A stretch of 64,000 bases of DNA, from positions 25,875 to 89,874 of the forward strand of contig DATATI010000034.1 in assembly GCA_036268875.1 (NCBI GenBank), read 5' to 3'. The notes beneath the pieces are model-generated. The model was not told the origin of the DNA. It saw only the letters and a program-made list of their open reading frames with translations, and did not search any database. Positions 3,847 to 40,733 of the stretch are shown one piece after another. The position numbers and the translations under genes were made by a program. This stretch comes from Polyangia bacterium (GTDB taxonomy: Bacteria > Myxococcota_A > Polyangia > Fen-1088). The number at the start of each line of letters is the position of its first letter. Within the stretch, counting starts at the first letter, position 1.

Positions 3847-4656
3847 TTAATTCGCCTGACGCCACACCGTCATCACGTGGTTCCAGCCGGCGCAGGCTTT
3901 GAAACCGCTGGACTGGTTCGGGTAGTCGGCGGCGGTGCAGTAATCCTTGCAATAACCGTCGCCGCCGGAGAACGGATCGACGTACGGCGCGTTCTTCTGC
4001 TTAGCACCGATGCGGCCGGGGACGACATCAACGTTGTATGCGATGCCGTTGCAATAGTACGCGGCGACCTTGCTCGGGTCGGTGCCGTGCGCGCCGGTGA
4101 CGAAGATGTTGCCGAAGAACGAACCTTCCTGGTTCGGATAGCTGGCATTGAGTCCCCAGCCCACCGACCGATCGGCCGACACAACCCAAAGCGGAATGTG
4201 CACGCCGGCGGTGTTGACGTGGGCCAGCATGCAGGACGACATCGTCTCCTGGCAGGCGCTGTCGCAGGCACCATCTTTCCATTGCGGCGCCAGGCCCATC
4301 TCGCCGGGGAAGGTGTACGAGTTGCCGTACTGGTCTTTCTTGACCACGCTGGTCCCGGCCGCGAGTGCGCAGCGAACCAGATACGCCACCGTGTTGCGCC
4401 CCGAATCGCTGGTCATCAAACCGTTCGTCGACGACAGTCCATTGCCCGTCGCCAGACCGTTGCCGGTGGCCAGTCCATTGCCCGTCGCCAGGCCGTTGGT
4501 CGAGCTGAGCCCGTTGATGGATGAGAGACCATTGGTGGTCTTCAGCAGGGAGTGGACGCCTTCGCCGCCCTCTTCGCCACTGAGATCCGCGCACCCGATC
4601 GATAGCAATGCCAAACCGACCGATACCATCCGTGCAACGCGAGGGAGCTTCTTCAT
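3847..4656 (-). CDS. secreted lipoprotein with NGL(S/A)(S/T)x hexapeptide tandem repeats
   Basis: Signal peptide plus lipobox (LLSIGC); seven tandem NGLSSI/NGLSST/NGLATG units; Cys-rich C-terminal domain; start set at MKKLPRV (track 4674 minus 18). Confidence 0.6.
   Translation of the reverse strand: MKKLPRVARMVSVGLALLSIGCADLSGEEGGEGVHSLLKTTNGLSSINGLSSTNGLATGNGLATGNGLATGNGLSSTNGLMTSDSGRNTVAYLVRCALAAGTSVVKKDQYGNSYTFPGEMGLAPQWKDGACDSACQETMSSCMLAHVNTAGVHIPLWVVSADRSVGWGLNASYPNQEGSFFGNIFVTGAHGTDPSKVAAYYCNGIAYNVDVVPGRIGAKQKNAPYVDPFSGGDGYCKDYCTAADYPNQSSGFKACAGWNHVMTVWRQAN
4410..4535 (-). repeat. about 7 tandem 18-nt coding repeats (hexapeptide NGLxxx)
   Basis: Visible periodicity ccattgcccgtcgccag(a/g)ccgttgcc... 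on plus strand; encodes NGLSSINGLSSTNGLATGNGLATGNGLATGNGLSSTNGLMTS. Confidence 0.6.
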
Positions 4657-16496: not shown

Positions 16497-17969
16497 CTAG
16501 GGAGACGCTTTTTCCGTCTCGTCCATCAGCCGCGCGGCATCGTCCAGGAACAGGCCGGCAGGAAAATCGCTGAGATACTGTCGCAAAGCGTCCGCCGCCC
16601 CAGCGTCGCCGAGGGTCTTGAGGCAGGCCGCCCGCCCAAAAGATGCCCGGTCAATCAGCTCGGCACGCCGTGAGGTTCGTTGCGTCAGCTCATACGAGCG
16701 GATCGCCGACTGGCAATCGCCGGCTGCGCGCTGCAGGTCGCCGGCAATCCGGGCGATCTCGTCCCGCCGTTCGCTGTCGGGATGATCGCGGAGAAACCGA
16801 TTGGCCTCGGCAAGTGCGCCCGGACTGTCACCCAGGCGCACCAAGGTTTCAACAATGGATACGTCGGCCTCGACGCGCAAAATGCCGTTCGCATTCGCGT
16901 CGCGGTAACGCCGCCAGGCGGCCACCGCGGCTTCCGGCTGGCGCAAGCGATCACGCAGGATCTTGCCGATCTCATAAGCGGCGTTTTCCGCCGCCGGTCC
17001 GCCGCGGGCCAGGATCTCGCCGTAAAGCTCCAGGCCTCGGCGGACGTCGCCGGCGGCCAGCGCTTCCTCGGCGTCTGCTCCCGGCAAAACCAGCGGCGAC
17101 ACCCGCACGCCGTCGACGGCGGCCGAGGTTGCCGCTGACGACGACGTTTGGGCCATGGCCAGGGCCCGCCGGTGCGCGCGCGACCGCACCCGCACCGCGG
17201 TCAGCGCGCGCATTCGGACCGCCACCGGCGCTGTCGGAGCGGTCGCCACCGGCGCCGGCAGCCCGGCCCACGATTCACCGACCGTCAGGCGCGCCAGGCG
17301 CACGGTGTCTCGCCACACCTCGACGACACCCTCGTCGACGTCCACGCTGACCCGATCGCCGCTGTGCACGCGAAACTTCGTACCCACCACCACCACCCGA
17401 TAGGCCCCCACCACCACCACGAAGTTTTTTCCGGGCGCCTGGTGCGGCACCGAGAAAGCGACGTCGCCTTCGTTCACCGACGGATGCTGCTCGTCGTCCA
17501 GGGACAATGTCGAGCGCGGGCCGACGGACGCGGCCACGCCGCCAGGCAATGCCAGCGCCAACGTCTCGCCGGCGGAGGTCCGCACGGTGGCCGGCCCCAC
17601 CAGCGCGCGCCGCTCCGGCGCGACCGGCGAAGCGACCGCCGGCAACGCGGTGACGACCGCCACCGCCAAGCGCGCCGGATGCGCCACGCCCACCGGCGCC
17701 AGCGCGGCCGGCGTGGGCGCGAGCCCCGGCCAAAACACCGCTGCCAAGACCGCCGCCAGCACCGCGCTGCTGGCCACGCCGCCCACGAACCACCGCCAGC
17801 GCGACGAGCTGCGCGGTCGCAAGACCGGCGACGTCGCTTGCGACAGCTTGCTCCACAGCCGCCGCAAGGCCACATCGTCGCCGGTGCGGGCCTGGGCGTC
17901 GTCCAGCGCGCGGCGCAGTTCGCTCTCCACGGGATCCAGGGATCGGTCCAGCCAGCGCTGGTCGCTCAC
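16497..17969 (-). CDS. anti-sigma factor: N-terminal anti-sigma region, TM, FecR-like domain and C-terminal TPR repeats
   Basis: TM segment (VGGVASSAVLAAVLAAVF), FecR-like beta region (VAFSVPHQAPGKNFVVVVGAYRVVVVGTKFRVH), TPR-like C-terminus; overlaps upstream ECF sigma by 4 nt. Confidence 0.65.
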   Translation of the reverse strand: MSDQRWLDRSLDPVESELRRALDDAQARTGDDVALRRLWSKLSQATSPVLRPRSSSRWRWFVGGVASSAVLAAVLAAVFWPGLAPTPAALAPVGVAHPARLAVAVVTALPAVASPVAPERRALVGPATVRTSAGETLALALPGGVAASVGPRSTLSLDDEQHPSVNEGDVAFSVPHQAPGKNFVVVVGAYRVVVVGTKFRVHSGDRVSVDVDEGVVEVWRDTVRLARLTVGESWAGLPAPVATAPTAPVAVRMRALTAVRVRSRAHRRALAMAQTSSSAATSAAVDGVRVSPLVLPGADAEEALAAGDVRRGLELYGEILARGGPAAENAAYEIGKILRDRLRQPEAAVAAWRRYRDANANGILRVEADVSIVETLVRLGDSPGALAEANRFLRDHPDSERRDEIARIAGDLQRAAGDCQSAIRSYELTQRTSRRAELIDRASFGRAACLKTLGDAGAADALRQYLSDFPAGLFLDDAARLMDETEKASP

Positions 17970-18586
17970 AGTCGCCTCCGCTTCGCTGCCTTCAGCAGCT
18001 GGGCACGCGCGTGATGCAGGCGCGACCAGGCGGTGTTCTCCGGGCAGCCCACCACCCGAGCCACCTCTTCAATGGGTAGGCCTTCCAGCTCGAACAGGAT
18101 CAGCACCAGGCGTTTCTTGGGATCGACCCGTTCAAGCAAGGTGTCCAAGATCTCAAGACGCTCCGTGCGTTCGGACTGGTCGGAGGCGGGCGGCGGCAAC
18201 GGCTCGCGCAGCATCAGCGTCGACAGCAACCGCTGCAGCCGATGGCGCTGGATCAAGCGCGCCGTTCCGCGCGCGGCGATCTTGTAGATCCACGTCGACA
18301 GTTGAGCATCGCCGCGAAAACGCGGCAGGCTGCGATAGACGGCCAAGAACACGTCCTGGCAAGCGTCCTCGCGCTCGCTCGGAACCACGCCCAGCGCGCT
18401 GATGAACCGGTGCACCATGGGGGCGTATCGTTCGTAAAGCTGGCGCCAAGCCCCGTGATCGCCTTGCTGGCAGCGCGCGATCAAAACCCGATCGGACGGT
18501 TCCGGAGAACCGCGCAAAGCGCTGCTGGCGACGCCTGGTGTCCGCAAAAGCTCCCCCGACCTTGAGGTTAGTGTCCGGCGGCCCAA
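17966..18586 (-). CDS. ECF-type sigma-70 factor
   Basis: Region 2 (YRSLPRFRGDAQLSTWIYKIA) and region 4 (LILFELEGLPIEEVARVVGCPENTAWSRLHHAR). Confidence 0.8.
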   Translation of the reverse strand: MGRRTLTSRSGELLRTPGVASSALRGSPEPSDRVLIARCQQGDHGAWRQLYERYAPMVHRFISALGVVPSEREDACQDVFLAVYRSLPRFRGDAQLSTWIYKIAARGTARLIQRHRLQRLLSTLMLREPLPPPASDQSERTERLEILDTLLERVDPKKRLVLILFELEGLPIEEVARVVGCPENTAWSRLHHARAQLLKAAKRRRL

Positions 18587-19547: not shown

Positions 19548-20810
19548 CTAGCTTCCTTCCATCAAGCCGCTGCAGCGATCCACCACCCGCGCCATCGCCT
19601 CGGCGAAGATCGACGGCGGGGGCAGAAGGCTCACCACCAAGAACGCGCCCGGTCCCGGCAGGTCGAAGAAATAACCGGGCTGCACCAGCACGCCGTCGCG
19701 CTGTAGCAGCGTGACCGCCCACTCTGCATCAGTCATCACGGCGGGGACGCGAAGAATGGCCGACCAGCCGGCCTCGGCCGGCAGCAACGTGCAAGGAGAT
19801 GACGACGGCAGCAGCGCCTGCAACCGGGCGCGGTTGGCCGCCACGCGAGCCGTGATGGCCGCGCGAATGGTGCCACCCAGAGCCAACAAATCCGGTGCCG
19901 CCAGCTGGACCGGCGTTGCCACGGAAAGATAGGTGTCGGCGATCAGCTCCAGCCGCCCCAGCGCCATCGCGACATCGGATGGTGATCCGCCGGCCACGAT
20001 CCAGCCGAGCTTGATCTGCGGCAAGCCGCACGACTTGGAGAGGCCGCCCAGGCTGAACGTCAACACCGGCGCAGCGCCGGCAGCCGCGGCCGCGGCGGCG
20101 CAGGCCACGGCGTCGCCGGGCCGGGCCCCGAAGGGAAAATCGGCGAACACCTCGTCGGCGATCAAGGCCATGCCGCCGCGCGCACAGAGCGTGGCCAGCC
20201 GGCGGCGCTCGTCGGCCTTGAGGAATGATCCGGTCGGGTTGTTCGGGCTGACCACGATCAGCGCGGGCGTCCTTTGGCCGGCGGCGCGGGCGGCTGCCAG
20301 CGCCGCGTCGATCGACGCAAAGTCGATATGCCAGACACCGTCGTAAGCCAGGCGATAGGCGATGGGTTGCACGCCTTCCAGGCGCGCCAGATAGTCGAAC
20401 AGCGGATAGCCGGGCTCGGGAATGAGAACGGCGTCGCCGGGATCGCACAGCAGCTTGAACAGCAGTGCATACGATTCGCTGCTGCTGGCGGTGAGCAGCA
20501 GGCGATCGGGATCGACGGTACATCCGCGCCGGGCATAGTCGGCGGCGACCGCGGCGCGCGCCGACGGCAACCCGCGCGGCGCCGGCGCATAGGTGGCCAC
20601 CTCGGGCGGCGCCAGCGCCTCGCGCAGCGCCGCCACCGGATACGGCAGGTCGACGGTGGTGGGATTGGACACCGTCAGATCAAGGACCGCGCCGCCGGCC
20701 TGATGGCGGGCCGTCTCGGCCGCGGCGAGGGCGTTTTCTGGGCGATCCCAGGGCAGACGACGCGAAAACACCGGGCGCAGGTTACCACCGGTGGCGCTTG
20801 TCCCGGCCAT
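19548..20810 (-). CDS. PLP-dependent aminotransferase, class I/II fold
   Basis: 420 aa; aminotransferase class-I pattern (NPTGSFL, LIADEVF..., SKSCGLPQ with PLP-Lys). Confidence 0.8.
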   Translation of the reverse strand: MAGTSATGGNLRPVFSRRLPWDRPENALAAAETARHQAGGAVLDLTVSNPTTVDLPYPVAALREALAPPEVATYAPAPRGLPSARAAVAADYARRGCTVDPDRLLLTASSSESYALLFKLLCDPGDAVLIPEPGYPLFDYLARLEGVQPIAYRLAYDGVWHIDFASIDAALAAARAAGQRTPALIVVSPNNPTGSFLKADERRRLATLCARGGMALIADEVFADFPFGARPGDAVACAAAAAAAGAAPVLTFSLGGLSKSCGLPQIKLGWIVAGGSPSDVAMALGRLELIADTYLSVATPVQLAAPDLLALGGTIRAAITARVAANRARLQALLPSSSPCTLLPAEAGWSAILRVPAVMTDAEWAVTLLQRDGVLVQPGYFFDLPGPGAFLVVSLLPPPSIFAEAMARVVDRCSGLMEGS

Positions 20811-20869
20811 CGGTTCAGGCGGCAGGCGTACTCGCGGCGACGGTCGGGTTGCCGTACAATGGAGCGTTC

Positions 20870-21565
20870 ATGGGTCTGGATCTGCGCGATCTGCTGAGAG
20901 GAGACATCCGCCTGCACCCCCGGGTGGTACAGCAATCGCTGTTCGGAAAGCCCGAGGATCGCCAGCGCCTGGCCTCGGCGTTGCCCCCGCTGGTGCCGTT
21001 CGGCAACGCCCAGTACGCGGGGGCCGATTGGATCTTGGACTGGGACCATCGACTGCCCTCTCGGCAGGCGGTCCTCCGGCTGTTCGCTTTTTACTCGGCC
21101 GAGCGGCGCAAAGAATTTCTCGACGGACACGAGGCCCGCCAGCGCGAGATCGCCAGCCAGGATCTGTTTCCCGAGTTCGACGTCCCCGACTTCGTCAAGT
21201 TGCCGGCGGACGAGGTCTACGAGACCGAGATGGATTTGAAGGGCAGCCCGGCGCGCCTGCGCCTGGTCAGCGAGTGGCGGCGCGAGATTGATCCTGGGCA
21301 AGGCAACCGCGCGGTGGAGATCGTCCGCAACTCGGAGCCGTTCAAGACGCTGAAGGCGCAGGCGAAGATCCGCGCGCCCGGATTGGGCGAGCTGGAGCCG
21401 GCCGAATGGTCGCCGCCGTGCGAGAGTGGCCACGTGCGCTGGGGCATCGACGTCTGGTATCTGCTGACGTTCAACGGCATGGTCGGCGAAGGGCGGGCGT
21501 TCCTGGTCGATCTCGAGGATCGTTCGGTGGTGCGCGAACGCGATTTTCAATTTCGCGCCGGCTAG
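20870..21565 (+). CDS. hypothetical protein
   Basis: ORF divergent from aminotransferase; start set at MGLDLRD; no recognisable domain. Confidence 0.4.
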   Translation: MGLDLRDLLRGDIRLHPRVVQQSLFGKPEDRQRLASALPPLVPFGNAQYAGADWILDWDHRLPSRQAVLRLFAFYSAERRKEFLDGHEARQREIASQDLFPEFDVPDFVKLPADEVYETEMDLKGSPARLRLVSEWRREIDPGQGNRAVEIVRNSEPFKTLKAQAKIRAPGLGELEPAEWSPPCESGHVRWGIDVWYLLTFNGMVGEGRAFLVDLEDRSVVRERDFQFRAG

Positions 21566-21572
21566 CGGCCGT

Positions 21573-22409
21573 TCAGGCAGCCAGAAGACCGTCGGCCAGC
21601 CATTGCCCGAGCCAGGTCGAGCCAAGGCGGGCGGCGTCCTCGGCGTCGCGCGTCTGGCTCAGGCGTTCGCAGAGAACACCGAAGGAAAGACCAGGCTGGA
21701 TCAAACGGATCGCCTCCTCCTCGGCGGCGTCGACCAGGCGGTGATAGACGGTGGTCTCGCGGCGCCAGACCAAGAAGGTGGCCGGTTGTTGGCGGACCAG
21801 CGCCTGCGGCGGCAGCGGCGCGGCGGCCAGCACCGCGGACCAGACGTCATCGATGGCGTGCACGGAGGGAACCAGCTCGTGCGCGGCGATCGGTTGCAGG
21901 ATCAGGGTGGCGAAGGCCTCGGGCGGCAACGTTTGAAGCTGCTGCCGCGTCAGCGGTGATTGATCGACGCGGTCAAAGACGTCGAGACGCGCCCATTCCA
22001 GCGCCGCCAGCTCGCCCAGCCAAGGACGATCGCCGGCCAGGGAATGCCCAGCGGCGAAAAGCGGCAAGTACCGGCCCACCTCGCGCAGCGATGGATGACG
22101 AGACCGGTGCGCCAACAGATAGTCGGTGATGAGATTGTGAAAGCCGGTCTCGTCCAGCGCCGCCGACGTGGCCGGAAAGTACTGCGCCAGCGTGTCGCGG
22201 ATTCGGTAGAAGTACATGTTGGCGTAGATATCCAGGCGCTCGACGGCGGAGGCGCGGTGGTCACCTTGAATGATCGCCGCCAATTGCTCGGCGCTGGCGC
22301 CGTCAGCGGCGAGGCCAGCGGCCACCCCTTCCGGCGCAGTGATCAGCGAGAAGAACTGCCGTTCGATCGCGGCCAGCATCGGCCGATCGGGCGCGTCACC
22401 CCGCCGCAT
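21573..22409 (-). CDS. DUF2063 (putative DNA-binding domain) protein, MNIO partner (BufC/MbnC-like)
   Basis: YFYRIRDTLAQYFP...FHNLITDYLLAHRS...REVGRYLPLF typical of DUF2063; 14-nt overlap with upstream DUF692 gene (alternative ATG at 22379). Confidence 0.75.
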   Translation of the reverse strand: MRRGDAPDRPMLAAIERQFFSLITAPEGVAAGLAADGASAEQLAAIIQGDHRASAVERLDIYANMYFYRIRDTLAQYFPATSAALDETGFHNLITDYLLAHRSRHPSLREVGRYLPLFAAGHSLAGDRPWLGELAALEWARLDVFDRVDQSPLTRQQLQTLPPEAFATLILQPIAAHELVPSVHAIDDVWSAVLAAAPLPPQALVRQQPATFLVWRRETTVYHRLVDAAEEEAIRLIQPGLSFGVLCERLSQTRDAEDAARLGSTWLGQWLADGLLAA

Positions 22410-23274
22410 GACTGACCGCTGGCGCGACCAGCAACGCCGCTCCGTTCGGCGCGGCTAGCAGCGCCGTTTCGATGCCAGCGGCGCGCCGCGATTCCTCCAC
22501 CACACGTTCGAGTGGCGGGATGTGATCGTCCCATTCGATCAGCGTCGACACCCGCCCGAACCGCCGCAGCGCCTGCCGGTAGAGGTCCCAGACGCCGTCG
22601 CAAACCGGGTGATCGTGGGTGTCCAGCAGCAGCTCGCCCGCCGTGCTGTGCCCAGCCAGATGAATCTGTCCCACCCGAGCAAGAGGAATTCCGGCGATGA
22701 ACGCCGCCGGATCGAAACCGTGGTTGTGGGCACTGACAAAGATGTTGTTCACGTCCAAAAGAACGCCGCAGTCGGCGCGCTGACAAAGCGCCGCCAAAAA
22801 CTCCCATTCGGTCATGGCCGACTGACAAAAGCTGACGTAGCTGGAGACGTTTTCCACCAGGATCCGTCTTTTGAGTCGATCCTGCACCCGCTGTACGCGC
22901 TCGGCGACGTGGTGCAAAGCCTCTTCAGTGTAAGGCAGAGGCAAAAGGTCGTGGGCGTAGTGCCCGCCCAGACTGCCCCAGCACAAATGATCGGAGATCA
23001 GCTCCGGTTGCACCTCAGCTGCCAGGTCTGCCAGCCCGTTCAAATAATCGCCGTTGATTGGGTCAACCGACCCCAGTGACAGCGAAACCCCGTGCATCAC
23101 CACCGGCGACCGCCCGCGAATTTCTCGCAACACCCGCCGCGGATTTCCCCCCGCCACCAGGAAATTGTCAGAAATAACTTCAAACCAATCCACCACCGGC
23201 GGCTGTTCCAGCACCGCCTGGTAATGCTCTGTGCGCAACCCAATCCCGTGTCCCAAATAAGGAAACAAATTCAT
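22396..23274 (-). CDS. DUF692 family multinuclear non-heme iron oxidase (MNIO; MbnB/BufB-like)
   Basis: MNLFPYLGHGIGLR..., VVMHGVSLSLGS, TIM-barrel (xylose-isomerase-like) pattern of DUF692; ATG 23274 with AGAGGGA RBS preferred over track GTG at 23313. Confidence 0.85.
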   Translation of the reverse strand: MNLFPYLGHGIGLRTEHYQAVLEQPPVVDWFEVISDNFLVAGGNPRRVLREIRGRSPVVMHGVSLSLGSVDPINGDYLNGLADLAAEVQPELISDHLCWGSLGGHYAHDLLPLPYTEEALHHVAERVQRVQDRLKRRILVENVSSYVSFCQSAMTEWEFLAALCQRADCGVLLDVNNIFVSAHNHGFDPAAFIAGIPLARVGQIHLAGHSTAGELLLDTHDHPVCDGVWDLYRQALRRFGRVSTLIEWDDHIPPLERVVEESRRAAGIETALLAAPNGAALLVAPAVSHAAG

Positions 23275-23290
23275 TCCCTCTTTAGGCCGA

Positions 23291-23333
23291 CTATTTTCAC
23301 CAATGACATCCACTTATTCATCCAATGACATCC
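23291..23333 (-). promoter_or_regulatory. 22-bp tandem direct repeat (2 units, core GGATGTCATTGG) upstream of MNIO start; candidate regulator binding site / internal promoter
   Basis: ccaatgacatcc occurs twice 22 nt apart on plus strand in an AT-richer patch 17-60 nt upstream of ATG 23274. Confidence 0.4.
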
Positions 23334-23412
23334 GATTGCCGCGCCTCAATTCCCATCCAGGAGGCCGAGCTCCGCTCGGCCGGCCCACCTTGCGCGAGGC
23401 GTTGGGTGGGCC

Positions 23413-23436
23413 CGCGGGAGGGCGAGCCCTCCCGCG
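23413..23436 (-). terminator. stable GC hairpin (11-bp stem) between precursor and MNIO genes; candidate attenuator / partial terminator
   Basis: cgcgggagggc-ga-gccctcccgcg perfect inverted repeat 12 nt 3' of precursor stop. Confidence 0.4.
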
Positions 23437-23447
23437 TAGCGAGCCCG

Positions 23448-23702
23448 TTATTTCGCCGCCGCGACTTTCCCGCCCTTGTCCTTGCACTCTTTGTCGCTCA
23501 TCTCCACCCAACCCTTGCCTTTGCAGCCGTTCTTGCCGGCGCAAGAATTGGCGGACGAATGGCAGCCACCTTTGCCCTTGCAAGCGTTGACACCCTCACA
23601 ATGCACCTTGCCGCCCTCGGCGGCGCTGGCGATGACAGGCGCCGCGGTGGCGAACAATCCGGCGGCAAGAGCGACAACCAAGGTACCTTTCGTGCTGATC
23701 AT
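23448..23702 (-). CDS. RiPP precursor: Sec-signal, six-Cys bufferin-like peptide (BUF_6/12Cys-like)
   Basis: 84 aa; signal peptide MISTKGTLVVALAAGLFATAAPVIASA|AE; core HCEGVNACKGKGGCHSSANSCAGKNGCKGKGWVEMSDKECKDKGG with repeated CxGxN(A/G)CKGKG; GGAGA RBS; first gene of MNIO cassette. Confidence 0.8.
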   Translation of the reverse strand: MISTKGTLVVALAAGLFATAAPVIASAAEGGKVHCEGVNACKGKGGCHSSANSCAGKNGCKGKGWVEMSDKECKDKGGKVAAAK

Positions 23703-23746
23703 TGATTCTCTCCTTTGGGGATTTTCTCAGGTGTTCGGCTATTGCT

Positions 23747-23772
23747 ACGCCGAAACCGGGAGCCCGTTACGA
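23747..23772 (-). promoter_or_regulatory. candidate ECF-sigma-type promoter (GTAAC-N16-CGTA) upstream of precursor gene
   Basis: Minus-strand reading cGTAACgggctcccggtttcggCGTAgc about 45-70 nt upstream of start; by analogy with my recollection of the Caulobacter SigF -35 GTAACC motif; weak. Confidence 0.2.
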
Positions 23773-23905
23773 TAAACCTCCGTCATAAACAGCGCCAACC
23801 CCAATGACGACCTGCAATATTTCGCTTTCCGCTACCAAATCTGAAACATGGCGTAAGATTACGGCAGGAATCGTTGCCCGCGGGTCACTAACCGCAGGAG
23901 TCAAC

Positions 23906-25132
23906 ATGCGAAGCTTTCGCGCAGTTCCTGGCTTCCTAGGCCTGATAGTTTTGGCCGTTGGGTGCAACTCCCCGGAGGGGTTTCACGGCATCGGTGCGGA
24001 CGGTGGCGCACCCACCGGCAGCGGCGGCATCGGCGTTGGCGCCGGCACCGGCGGCGATGACGGCACCGGTGGACTGGGCGGCAGCGGCGGATTGTTCGGC
24101 AGCGGCGGCACGGGCGGCGGCGGCACGGGCGGCAGCGGCACCGGCGGCGCTGGCGGCGACGGATCGGGCGGCGGCGGCGTCGACGCTCCGATGGACGTCT
24201 CCATCGACCAGAGGGCGGACGCCGGCGCGGATGCGCCCGCGATCAGCGACGCGCGCGACACCGCCGCCGACAGCGGATCGCAGGTGCTGACCTTCCAGAA
24301 CTATTGCTTGCGCGCGCACTGGACCGCCACCGCGTCGCTGCAGCCGGACCTGGCCATCAACGCCATCGACGGCGATGCCGTCACCATGTGGGCGACGGCG
24401 GCGCCGCAGACACCGAACGAGTATTTGCAGGTCGATCTCGGCGGGCCGACCCGCCTGACCCAGATCGTCCTCGACAACAGCGCCGGCAATCAGACCGACT
24501 ACCCGCGGGCGTACACCGTCGTGGGCTCCGCCGACGGCAATTCGTTTCCCACCACGATGGCCAGCGTCGGTCAAACACCGGCCGGCGCGCTCACCACCAT
24601 CAGCTTCAACGCGGTCACGGTGCGCGCCTTCCGCATCATCCAAGCCAACTCTGACCCGACGTTCTGGTGGACGGTGCACGAGCTGCGCCTCGGCTGCCAG
24701 CCTGCCACCGCGCCACCGGCCGGTGCCTTCGATCCGTTCGATCCCAGCCAGTGGATCGTGACCGCGTCGTCCAACGTGGGCGGAGAAGGGCCGAGCAATG
24801 CCATCGACGGAGACTTCACCACGCGCTGGACGTCTGGTGCGCACCAGCAGGGCAGCGAGTATTTCATGGTGGACATGGGCGCACCGACCACCATCAGCCA
24901 GGTGTGGATGACCACCCGTCAAAGCCCGAATGATTTTGCCACTCAGTACGCGCTGGACGTGTCGACCAACGGCACCACGTTCTCCACCGTGGCCACGGGC
25001 GCCGGCGCCATCGTCACCAAGATCGTCGTTTCGCCAGTCAAGGCGCGCTATGTGAAGATCCGCCAGACCGGCCAGACGGACCCCAACATCGGCAGCTGGT
25101 GGTCGTTCGACGAGCTGACCATTCGCCCGTGA
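23906..25132 (+). CDS. lipoprotein with Gly-rich linker and two F5/8 type C (discoidin) domains
   Basis: Signal + lipobox (LAVGCNSP), GTGG linker, duplicated discoidin-like modules (HWTATAS...NAIDGD..TMW and NAIDGDFTTRWTSG); start at MRSF. Confidence 0.7.
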   Translation: MRSFRAVPGFLGLIVLAVGCNSPEGFHGIGADGGAPTGSGGIGVGAGTGGDDGTGGLGGSGGLFGSGGTGGGGTGGSGTGGAGGDGSGGGGVDAPMDVSIDQRADAGADAPAISDARDTAADSGSQVLTFQNYCLRAHWTATASLQPDLAINAIDGDAVTMWATAAPQTPNEYLQVDLGGPTRLTQIVLDNSAGNQTDYPRAYTVVGSADGNSFPTTMASVGQTPAGALTTISFNAVTVRAFRIIQANSDPTFWWTVHELRLGCQPATAPPAGAFDPFDPSQWIVTASSNVGGEGPSNAIDGDFTTRWTSGAHQQGSEYFMVDMGAPTTISQVWMTTRQSPNDFATQYALDVSTNGTTFSTVATGAGAIVTKIVVSPVKARYVKIRQTGQTDPNIGSWWSFDELTIRP

Positions 25133-25156: not shown

Positions 25157-25588
25157 TCAGCGGCTCCAGCCGCGTTCGTTCTTGAACAGGTGCGCCAGCG
25201 CCTGGCTGAGGCCGTCCAGGCCCGGCTTGAAGAACACCGGCGCGTCGATGCTGACGCCGATCATCGTGTCGTTCGACGACGTCACGCCAAAGCGAGCGAT
25301 GTCGCGATCGACCTCGCTTCGGCGGAGCGCGCGCAAGACGCGTTCGCCGGAACGGTTGGCCATGTCCAGATCGCCGATGATCAAGCCTGGTCGCTCCTCG
25401 TGAAGGGCCGTGGTCACTTCCGTTTCGGTCTTGGCGCAACGAACGCCATAGCCTTCCTCGATGGCCAATTCCATCAGGAAGTCACGCAATTCAGGATCGT
25501 CGCTGACGACCAGGACGGAGGCAGGAACCCTCCCGGTCGGCGGCGCCGGTGTTCCTCCGGTCGGCAAGAGCGTCACCAGCATCTCCAA
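25157..25588 (-). CDS. single-domain response regulator (receiver)
   Basis: SVLVVSDDPELRDFL...GLIIGDLDMANRSG...FFKPGLD receiver pattern; true start probably internal. Confidence 0.65.
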   Translation of the reverse strand: MEMLVTLLPTGGTPAPPTGRVPASVLVVSDDPELRDFLMELAIEEGYGVRCAKTETEVTTALHEERPGLIIGDLDMANRSGERVLRALRRSEVDRDIARFGVTSSNDTMIGVSIDAPVFFKPGLDGLSQALAHLFKNERGWSR

Positions 25589-39668: not shown

Positions 39669-40733
39669 TCAGCTCTCGTCGGTGTCGCTGTCGTCGGAGA
39701 GATATTCCAGAATCACTTCGTCCAGGCTTTTGTCGGAGACCAGCTCGTTTCCGAACGAGCGCTCGGCGGCAGGCGCGGTGTGGCCGCGGCGATCGATGGG
39801 GGCCACGGGCTGGGCGGCCACGGGCTGGGCGGCCGCGGGTTGCACTGCCACCGGCTGCGGGTCCCAGGTGATTCCAGCGTGGCCGCCCTTGCCGGCGACC
39901 GGGGCCGGCGACGGCGTCATCGCCTGCGGCGAAGCCATGGTGCGGGAGGGCGGACCGTCGCCGCCGTTCGACGACGAGGCCGGCACGTAGCTGCCTTCGC
40001 GAACCACGTACGGAACAGGGGGGCGAATGCGCGCAGGCCGTGTTGGCCCAGGCGTGCCGCCGGGACCGCCGACGCCGATCACCACGTTGCGCTGCACCAC
40101 CACCCCGTCGGCCGAGCTGGACAGCACCACCGGCGGGCGCTTGAGCTCGGCGGGTTTCACCACCGGCTGCGTGACCCGCGGGATCCCTTGCGGACGCGTG
40201 CCGCCCGGTCGGGTGGGCGATCGGCTTTCGCCGCCCCCGCCACCGCCCGGACCGACCATGCCTGAACCCTGCACGACCACCGCGCCGGGCGCGCCATTGC
40301 TGACCGTGACGTGCGAAGAAGCGATGGGCACCGACGGCGGTCGCTGCGTCGACGACGACGGTGATGAGGACGGCGATTGCGTCAGGGCGGGTGCGACGAC
40401 GGGAGCGACCTCTGCCGCCGACGCGTCGGGCAGGATGGCGGGAAGGCCGCGCGACGCGAAGAACGCGGCGATCTTGGCGTCGTGCTCGCCGCGGGTCAGC
40501 TCTTTCATCACCGCCTTGTGCAGGTTCTGCATCTGCGCGCGGACCAGATCTTCGTCGGCCGAGACCTCGTACTCGTGCTTGCGCGTGACCAGGATGGTGC
40601 CTTCGTAAAACAGGTGCGTGAAGACACGCGGGATCACAGGACCCGAGTCCTCGGACTGCACGTGAAAGATCCGGCCGTGATAGCGGACGTTGTGGTTGTA
40701 GCCAACGACCGGGCTACGAAGCGGTTTGGCCAT
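39669..40733 (-). CDS. hypothetical protein: conserved N-terminal 100 aa, Pro/Ala/Val-rich low-complexity middle, acidic C-terminus
   Basis: 354 aa; no domain recognised. Confidence 0.45.
   Translation of the reverse strand: MAKPLRSPVVGYNHNVRYHGRIFHVQSEDSGPVIPRVFTHLFYEGTILVTRKHEYEVSADEDLVRAQMQNLHKAVMKELTRGEHDAKIAAFFASRGLPAILPDASAAEVAPVVAPALTQSPSSSPSSSTQRPPSVPIASSHVTVSNGAPGAVVVQGSGMVGPGGGGGGESRSPTRPGGTRPQGIPRVTQPVVKPAELKRPPVVLSSSADGVVVQRNVVIGVGGPGGTPGPTRPARIRPPVPYVVREGSYVPASSSNGGDGPPSRTMASPQAMTPSPAPVAGKGGHAGITWDPQPVAVQPAAAQPVAAQPVAPIDRRGHTAPAAERSFGNELVSDKSLDEVILEYLSDDSDTDES

Follow-up and report, generated by a model that had tools for sequence, protein, structure and literature searches.

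How is the spacer between the precursor gene and the maturase gene of a bufferin operon organized, and do the hairpin and the short direct repeat that it carries regulate the modification genes? This question is raised by a 64,000-nt stretch of DNA from a metagenome-assembled genome (MAG) of a Polyangia bacterium (GenBank assembly GCA_036268875.1, contig DATATI010000034.1, positions 25,875 to 89,874). The stretch was analysed at its full length and is called the window below; all positions are counted from its first nucleotide. Bufferins are copper-stress peptides (PMC11626156). The minus strand of the window carries a bufferin operon with the gene order bufA2, bufB (encoding the MNIO enzyme) and bufC:

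23448 to 23702, minus strand: bufA2, precursor gene of 84 aa with a signal peptide and a 6-Cys core (NCBIfam NF050166 BufA2, 78.6 bits against a cut-off of 60)
22396 to 23274, minus strand: bufB, MNIO bufferin maturase with its start at ATG 23274 (NF050167, 382 bits against a cut-off of 310; PF05114, 3e-110)
21573 to 22409, minus strand: bufC, HvfC-like partner (DUF2063) overlapping the end of bufB (PF09836, 8e-16, 58.5 bits against 27.2)

The matches to the precursor and MNIO models, together with the directly downstream DUF2063/HvfC-type partner, identify the locus as a BufA2-BufB-BufC operon; with the HvfC equivalog model NF050145, bufC scored 55.8 bits, under the cut-off of 142. The spacer between bufA2 and bufB is 173 nt long and follows the precursor stop codon TAA at 23450-23448. 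The nearest relatives of the locus are found in other Polyangia (Myxococcota) MAGs, at 93% BufB identity for locus L001 and 85-87% for loci L002-L004. Precursor-MNIO spacers were taken from 160 related loci out of genome and metagenome collections, and motifs were counted in a set of 165 loci. We consider it rather probable that the spacer is an ordinary intercistronic control region of the type found in operons for peptides that are synthesized ribosomally and modified post-translationally (RiPPs), made of a stem-loop under selection and of a lineage-specific AU-rich insertion that contains a young 22-nt duplication.

A conserved stem-loop follows the precursor stop codon

Past the bufA2 stop codon, the spacer is predicted to fold into three consecutive GC-rich stem-loops that adjoin each other without a gap:

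23413 to 23436, minus strand: SL1, 10-bp stem and 4-nt loop built from a perfect inverted repeat of 11 nt, not followed by a U-tract (-25.7 kcal/mol, z -3.4)
23382 to 23412, minus strand: SL2, 8-bp GC stem with an internal mini-hairpin (-25.2 kcal/mol, z -2.8), kept in the centroid structure of L001
23363 to 23381, minus strand: SL3, 8-bp stem closed by a 3-nt loop (-18.3 kcal/mol, z -2.0), with a weaker form in L001

A preliminary description of this DNA had reported a perfect 11-bp inverted repeat 12 nt past the precursor stop, and this repeat is indeed present, with arms at 23413-23423 and 23426-23436 that are separated by 2 nt; SL1 begins at the 12th nucleotide past the TAA. The folding energy of SL1 counts three extra outer pairs (G-C, C-G and U·G). 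SL2 and SL3, which that description did not mention, are present in the window and in L001 only. The entire spacer folds better than all of 200 shuffled sequences (200/200).

Taken alone, SL1 is not significant with respect to chance. A single inverted repeat with arms of at least 11 nt and a loop of at most 6 nt occurs in the 64-kb window, and 0.65 per 64 kb are expected from first-order Markov simulations, 41% of which hold at least one. Its position and its conservation are significant. Four substitutions separate the SL1 stem of the window from that of L001; they amount to one A-U to G-C and one G-C to A-U pair change, both compensatory, and none of them is disruptive. The loop and the flanks of SL1 are only 66-74% identical between the two loci (26-34% divergence), with synonymous third positions, which differ by 18%, as the neutral benchmark. 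Homologues of SL1 were found in L001, in L084/L004/L164 and in L163, each with a 5' arm CGCGGG[A/G]G, a 3' arm C[U/C]CCCGCG and a folding energy of -23 to -31 kcal/mol; in the L163 stem, the first of the two compensated positions is a G·U pair. The pairs were read from individual folds, as the MAFFT alignment of the four SL1 homologues, whose loop lengths differ, is not structure-aware and was not used for pair counts. Combined, the position of SL1, its compensatory changes with respect to L001 and the homologous stems in L084 and L163 indicate that its predicted pairing is under selection.

The same pattern was found across the family. The related loci gave 95 distinct spacers, of which 78, belonging to many lineages, fall within the analysed range of 35-260 nt; these were compared with mononucleotide shuffles. 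Nearly all of them (95%) fold better than their shuffles, with a median minimum free energy z of -3.0 and 69% at z < -2, and a hairpin of -20 kcal/mol or stronger is present in 86%. The position of the strong hairpins is almost constant, 97% of them starting at most 30 nt from the precursor stop. In 15 of the 78 spacers a T-run of at least four nucleotides lies on the 3' side, making them canonical intrinsic terminators (for example in L006, L024, L091 and L094). The other 17 of the 95 spacers lie outside the length range, and 16 of these are too short for a hairpin. By comparison of the predicted folds, SL1 is a member of a class of precursor-proximal stem-loops that is conserved in bufferin operons. 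The spacers of L120, L126 and L130 contain unusually long AT-rich hairpins made of GTTGTTAGG-type repeat units, which taken alone have -26 to -44 kcal/mol and z of -5 to -7 and which occupy the same position with a different sequence.

These data bear on the simplest alternative, according to which the hairpins are GC-rich chance palindromes that have no effect on expression, the operon being uniformly expressed. That a perfect repeat of this size is expected 0.65 times per 64 kb, that SL1 is without a U-tract and that the hairpin is not obligatory, 16 of the 95 spacers being too short for one, would all suit this alternative; it is nevertheless very unlikely in view of the substitutions that keep the stem, of the folding of the 78 spacers and of the constant distance from the stop codon.

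A consensus terminator scan of the spacer did not call SL1, because it has no T-run. No match at E <= 1 was obtained in an Rfam covariance-model search of 22800-24000, and when the spacer was searched by blastn-short in the window and in all loci, L001 was the sole match. A dispersed repetitive extragenic palindromic (REP) element or miniature inverted-repeat transposable element (MITE) was rejected because of this blastn-short result: REP-type hairpins are dispersed, whereas the bufA2-bufB spacer has no other copy in the window or in the loci besides L001.

A single promoter is expected upstream of bufA2

Upstream of the precursor gene, the window contains one match to a known promoter type:

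23746 to 23770, minus strand: σF-type extracytoplasmic function (ECF) promoter-like motif GTAACG-N15-CGTA, upstream of bufA2 and unique in the window

The motif GTAAC[CG]-N14-16-CGTA was found 41 times in the 165 loci, 40 times on the operon strand and mostly just upstream of the precursor gene. It is similar to the experimentally defined σF site of Caulobacter, GTAACC-N16-CGAA (PMC3511200), which drives homologous buf operons (PMC3511200, PMC11626156). Because of the position of the motif, its operon-strand bias and its likeness to the Caulobacter site, the default expectation is one ECF-type transcription start site upstream of the precursor gene. The σF-dependent buf operons of Caulobacter, CC3254-3257 and CC2907-2905, have the same order of precursor, MNIO and DUF2063 genes (PMC3511200, PMC11626156). 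In contrast to them, the locus studied here has neither an adjacent sigF-nrsF pair nor an adjacent DoxX gene, and its nearest ECF σ gene (17966-18586) has a FecR-type anti-σ gene as partner.

This ECF σ gene and its FecR-type partner (16497-17969) lie on the minus strand, 3 kb downstream of bufC. σ70 region 4 is present in a second protein, encoded at 780-1487 on the plus strand, and no NrsF-type anti-σ factor was seen among the window open reading frames (ORFs) tested. A clade-specific conserved element, TTGGCG-N18-TATCGT (23769-23808, minus strand), overlaps the -35 region of the σF-like motif and is present in the window, L001, L002, L081/L161, L084 and L163.

Stem-loops and the precursor to enzyme ratio

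In bacterial operons, intercistronic stabilizing hairpins are known to give segmental mRNA stability, as in the Rhodobacter puf operon and the malE-malF REP of E. coli. Internal terminators set the stoichiometry of ATP-binding cassette transporter operons (PMC9045158). The feature shared with the bufA2-bufB spacer is a strong stem-loop after the gene that is needed in excess. In RiPP operons, imperfect terminators after a first-gene precursor are the commonest route to more precursor than enzyme (PMC7113386). As in the attenuators of lantibiotic and microcin clusters, a GC-rich stem-loop lies here between a first-gene precursor and the modification genes; the differences are the missing U-tract, the presence of three stem-loops in a row and the bufferin (BufA2/MNIO) class of the operon (PMC7113386). 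When the features of RiPP attenuators are taken in turn, the stem-loop right after the precursor gene and the selected pairing are found in the window, whereas the U-rich tract is not found there and occurs in 15 orthologous spacers. Neither of the two main papers on bufferins makes mention of a terminator or hairpin.

The idea put forward in the preliminary description, that the hairpin produces a precursor to enzyme imbalance, fits this attenuator design and is consistent with the compensatory changes, with the L084 and L163 stems and with the 78 spacers; what has to be kept conditional is the part that makes SL1 a terminator, as no U-tract follows it. SL1 may instead stabilize the 3' end of the transcript, and because of the missing U-tract the sequence cannot tell termination from a stabilized processed 3' end. 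Stems tend to be longer and U-tracts short or absent in high-GC bacteria, Rho-dependent 3' ends fold into stem-loops without U-tracts, and stems of this kind can mark stable 3' ends (PMC13613805).

In the model that we favor, the σF-type ECF promoter upstream of bufA2 would drive transcription of bufA2, bufB and bufC. With SL2 and SL3 as a reinforcement in this lineage, SL1 would partly stop transcription or shield the 3' end of a short bufA2 transcript, and either action would result in more message for the substrate peptide than for the enzymes of bufB and bufC. The 70 AT-rich nucleotides past the stem-loops would be a lineage-specific insertion serving as an unstructured translation-initiation region for bufB, composed of an AU-rich stretch, the Shine-Dalgarno-like TAAAGAGG and ATG 23274.

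The repeat is part of a lineage-specific AT-rich patch

Downstream of the stem-loops, the spacer contains a linker and two repeat units, and a third copy of part of the repeat lies upstream of the promoter:

23334 to 23362, minus strand: linker from the stem-loops to the repeats, poorly conserved (19 of 29 nt identical to L001)
23312 to 23333, minus strand: 22-nt unit 1, composed of the 12-mer GGATGTCATTGG (23322-23333) followed by ATGAATAAGT; 4 changes in 22 nt with respect to L001, the neutral rate
23290 to 23311, minus strand: 22-nt unit 2, composed of the 12-mer (23300-23311) followed by TGAAAATAGT; within a 39-nt block that has 1 change with respect to L001
23793 to 23808, minus strand: third copy of GTCATTGG (23801-23808), adjoining the conserved TTGGCG (23793-23798) 18 nt upstream of TATCGT

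The preliminary description was correct about the anatomy: the 12-mer (minus-strand sense) occurs twice with a spacing of 22 nt, these being its only two exact copies in the window, and it lies in a patch whose composition is unusual for this genome (GC 0.38-0.43 over 23260-23349 compared to 0.68 for the window). Among the 165 loci, the dyad and the AT-rich patch were found in the window and its sister L001 only. The patch is absent from all other orthologues, whose spacers are typically 58-112 nt long; in the sister clades (82-88% identity) spacers of 13-95 nt were found, with bufB directly after the hairpin. Scans of genome and metagenome contigs and of 5.8 billion clustered proteins returned only L001 at more than 90% identity, and four relatives at 86-88% identity that were looked up all lack the patch. 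L001 keeps the 22-nt spacing, with GGGTGCCATTGG and GGACGTCATTGG as its two copies; between these, 3 of 12 positions differ, and TGTCAT is missing from copy 1. The dyad is therefore not conserved as a unit; the bufB-proximal block is conserved.

Local duplication is common in this genome, because exact direct repeats of at least 12 nt within 40 nt gave 53 hits at 17 loci in the window, compared to 0.8 12-mer hits per 64 kb in simulations (other examples lie at 238-268, 4435-4491, 24102-24133 and 39801-39834). In 14 of the 17 the period is a multiple of 3, as for coding repeats, and most lie inside GC-rich coding regions; the 22-nt repeat is one of just three with another period and the sole AT-rich one. 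The direct repeat far exceeds random expectation; even so, neither it nor SL1 is striking by statistics, and the context decides. Tandem Repeats Finder reported no tandem array at the spacer, and the arrangement CATTGG-N15-17-CATTGG did not occur elsewhere in 0.85 Mb of related loci. A transposon target-site duplication or excision footprint was rejected, as the copies are only 10 nt apart. Judged from these comparisons, the 22-base repeat is probably a recent local duplication and not a regulator site. In the favored model, the 22-nt unit would have been duplicated in tandem by slippage inside the AT-rich insertion, and the repeated 12-mer as such would have no sequence-specific regulatory role.

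An operator or internal promoter in the spacer is unlikely

The repeat had been read in the preliminary description as an OmpR/PhoB-type site that regulates an internal promoter of the modification genes. In a broader form of this reading, the two 12-mers, or perhaps four GGATG-like half-sites spaced by 10, 12 and 10 nt, would be the operator of a DNA-binding regulator. This might be a response regulator of the OmpR/PhoB or CusR/CopR kind, or a different factor with GTCATTGG at the main promoter as an additional target, and bufB and bufC would be controlled apart from bufA2 through an internal promoter or a roadblock. The geometry is suitable, as two exact 12-mers 22 nt apart lie on the same helical face. 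The patch diverges from L001 by 13%, which is near the 10% of the genuine promoter region and below the 18% synonymous rate. The distal copy diverges neutrally, and the dyad is in no orthologous spacer except that of L001, in which the two copies differ and copy 1 has lost TGTCAT. Candidate half-sites starting with GGATG or GGTGA lie at 23333, 23323, 23311 and 23301, in a site type for which tandem direct half-sites would have a period of about 10-11 bp; in L001 they read only GGRYR. Lack of conservation in orthologous loci had itself been named in advance as evidence that would speak against a regulatory site, and this is the result obtained, because the dyad and the patch are limited to the window and L001 among the 165 loci.

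No promoter for such an operator to act on was found. Scans of the spacer for σ70, σF/ECF and σ54 sites and for the local TTGGCG-N18-TATCGT element returned nothing convincing, and no minus-strand promoter was called; the best σ70-like match (8/12) is built from the two repeat copies and misses the -11 A, and for σF and σ54 there was no match. A suitable regulator was not found either: a winged-helix output domain (Trans_reg_C) was absent from the approximately 54 window ORFs scanned. A 143-aa protein encoded nearby (25157-25588, minus strand) is a stand-alone response-regulator receiver domain without an output domain.

The resemblance to copper-responsive sites was also considered. TGTCATT within the 12-mer matches the CusR half-site TTGTCATTTT (PMC11195947), and the copper-response context of bufferins fits; this 7-mer match is weak evidence. 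CusR/CopR copper boxes (AAAATGACAAnnTTGTCATTTT and CTGACAn5GTAAT) are inverted repeats with a 2-nt center (PMC11195947), whereas the copies here are direct repeats 22 nt apart, with no adjoining promoter and no such regulator found in the window. Neither the copper-box palindrome ATGACAAnnTTGTCAT nor CTGACAn5GTAAT is present, only the half-site TGTCATT in direct arrangement. The third copy of GTCATTGG, upstream of the σF-type promoter, provides a further argument for a regulator, since (G)TCATT(T)GG or CATTGG is conserved in position in L001, L002, L081 and L084; the corresponding sequences are GTCATTGG in L001, GTCATTTGG in L002, GGTCATTGG in L081 and GCGCATTGG in L084. In L163 this copy reads CCGTTGG. 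The L083 spacer has CATTGG followed by CATTG 23 nt downstream (start to start). The 4 copies of GTCATTGG in the window compare with 1.55 expected, a number reached by 6% of the shuffles. Combined, these data make an operator in the spacer unlikely. It is distinctly doubtful that GTCATTGG is the recognition element of a putative and possibly copper-responsive regulator of this Polyangia lineage, which would bind at roughly -60 relative to the σF-type promoter of bufA2 and also at two places in the spacer; if it were true, the enzyme would be tuned independently of the precursor inside an operon otherwise driven by one ECF promoter.

A role of BufC as a DNA-binding factor, an idea that comes from the old Pfam description of DUF2063, is unlikely, its current assignment being a partner resembling a RiPP recognition element.

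bufB most probably starts at ATG 23274

The start codon of bufB decides whether the proximal repeat copy is coding, and it is preceded by a candidate ribosome-binding site:

23275 to 23284, minus strand: Shine-Dalgarno-like TAAAGAGGGA immediately before the bufB ATG, predicted to be unpaired and 100% identical in L001

The preference given to ATG 23274 over GTG 23313 in the preliminary description was borne out. Exactly 7 residues precede the motif GxGxGLR in 101 of the 120 closest BufB homologues, as they do with ATG 23274, and homologues with longer start calls mostly have an internal Met at the position aligned with the ATG. In the public annotation, the window protein and that of L001 both have 292 aa; the BufB profile sets in at residue 10 when the protein is read from the ATG, and all other orthologues start at the aligned ATG. 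An exact-match lookup of the GTG-start protein found nothing on record. Sequence comparison thus supports ATG 23274 as the start. The proposed ribosome-binding site AGAGGGA is present at 23275-23281; it adjoins the ATG, with 2 nt after the GAGG core, which is atypically short for a Shine-Dalgarno spacing. The patch as a whole is predicted to be unstructured (z -0.4), TAAAGAGGGA and the ATG being unpaired.

A start at GTG 23313 would make the proximal repeat copy coding, as part of an extension MDVIGENSRPKEG, and the conservation of the 39 nt before the ATG would then result from purifying selection on codons. The single change with respect to L001 in the block 23275-23313, GAT to GAC, is indeed synonymous in that frame; conservation starts exactly at the GTG, which is preceded by a stop codon in both genomes, and the GTG has a GGATG 5 nt upstream of it, at a distance that would work for a Shine-Dalgarno sequence. 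The 13 extra codons have a GC content at third codon positions (GC3) of 31%, compared to 72% for the gene, and the homologue starts, profile and annotation described above are all those of the ATG. A GTG start is quite improbable.

In L007, L011, L089-L094 and others, the bufB ATG lies 3-10 nt past the terminator T-run and is without a Shine-Dalgarno sequence, which suggests that bufB initiation may be intrinsically weak or unusual in many orthologues. A 16-codon upstream ORF (MNKWMSLVKIVGLKRE; 23271-23321, minus strand) with an ATGA overlap with the bufB start was rejected, its own ATG and an internal ATG being lost in L001.

Control at the RNA level was considered as well, with the patch as a platform for a post-transcriptional regulator (CsrA-like GGA motifs) or as the target of a small RNA that gates bufB translation. 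Four GGA motifs lie within 59 nt (GGAUGU, GGAUGA, GGAUGU and GGGAAUG), the last one overlapping the Shine-Dalgarno-like sequence and the ATG, in a region that is single-stranded in the predicted fold; GGAUGU is identical to the 3' half of RUACARGGAUGU, the CsrA SELEX consensus. This number of GGA motifs is not clearly above the expectation for a G/A-rich patch, the first one is lost in L001, none of them is placed in a hairpin loop, and no Rfam match was obtained. Such control is highly improbable.

Observations that limit the interpretation

Several observations weigh against reading the spacer as an ordinary control region with a neutral repeat. For the stem-loop, these are the chance expectation of 0.65 perfect 11-nt inverted repeats per 64 kb and the lack of any T within 9 nt after the SL1 stem, in view of which intrinsic termination is only putative. 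For the repeat, the window contains four copies of GTCATTGG; three lie outside coding sequence at this locus, each of them on the minus strand; one of these copies is at a conserved position upstream of the main promoter; and TGTCATT is a half-site of the E. coli CusR box in an operon whose products respond to copper. The comparison relies on just one sister sequence, L001. With respect to it, 1 change is present in the 39-nt stretch that precedes the ATG and contains copy 2, compared to about 7 expected (binomial P = 0.005, for an interval chosen post hoc), and this conservation exceeds what a Shine-Dalgarno sequence alone would need; the GAGG core of that sequence is, moreover, only 2 nt from the ATG.

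Neighboring genes and composition

bufA2 and bufB (22396-23702, minus strand) have a GC content of 0.61 and a GC3 of 0.72-0.74, compared to a GC3 of 0.81-0.85 for bufC and its neighbors; these low values may reflect a horizontal origin or the composition of the 5' part of the operon. A 255-aa ORF convergent with bufC (20798-21565, plus strand) has a GC3 of 0.82 and no Pfam or NCBIfam match. The gene divergent from the operon (23804-25132, plus strand) encodes two F5/8 type C domains, and the divergent layout is kept in L002 and L084. This gene probably starts at 23906 and not at 23804, as GGAGTCAACATG is found there, followed by a candidate lipoprotein signal MRSFRAVPGFLGLIVLAVGC.

Significance for bufferin operons

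What the analysis gives for this particular locus is mostly clarification: the hairpin is of an ordinary kind, and the conspicuous repeat probably arose as a young duplication. The new points, which are modest, concern how general the hairpin and the σF-type promoter are among BufA2 operons. Bufferins form a large, recently described family of copper-binding RiPPs in which the balance of precursor and enzyme has so far not been addressed. Almost every bufA2-bufB spacer of sufficient length has a strong stem-loop directly past the precursor stop, and a σF-type promoter motif is found in most of these operons. A hairpin after the precursor stop together with a σF-type promoter would provide a simple and testable expression model for the family, and in heterologous expression the hairpin may be kept or removed to set the ratio of precursor to enzyme.

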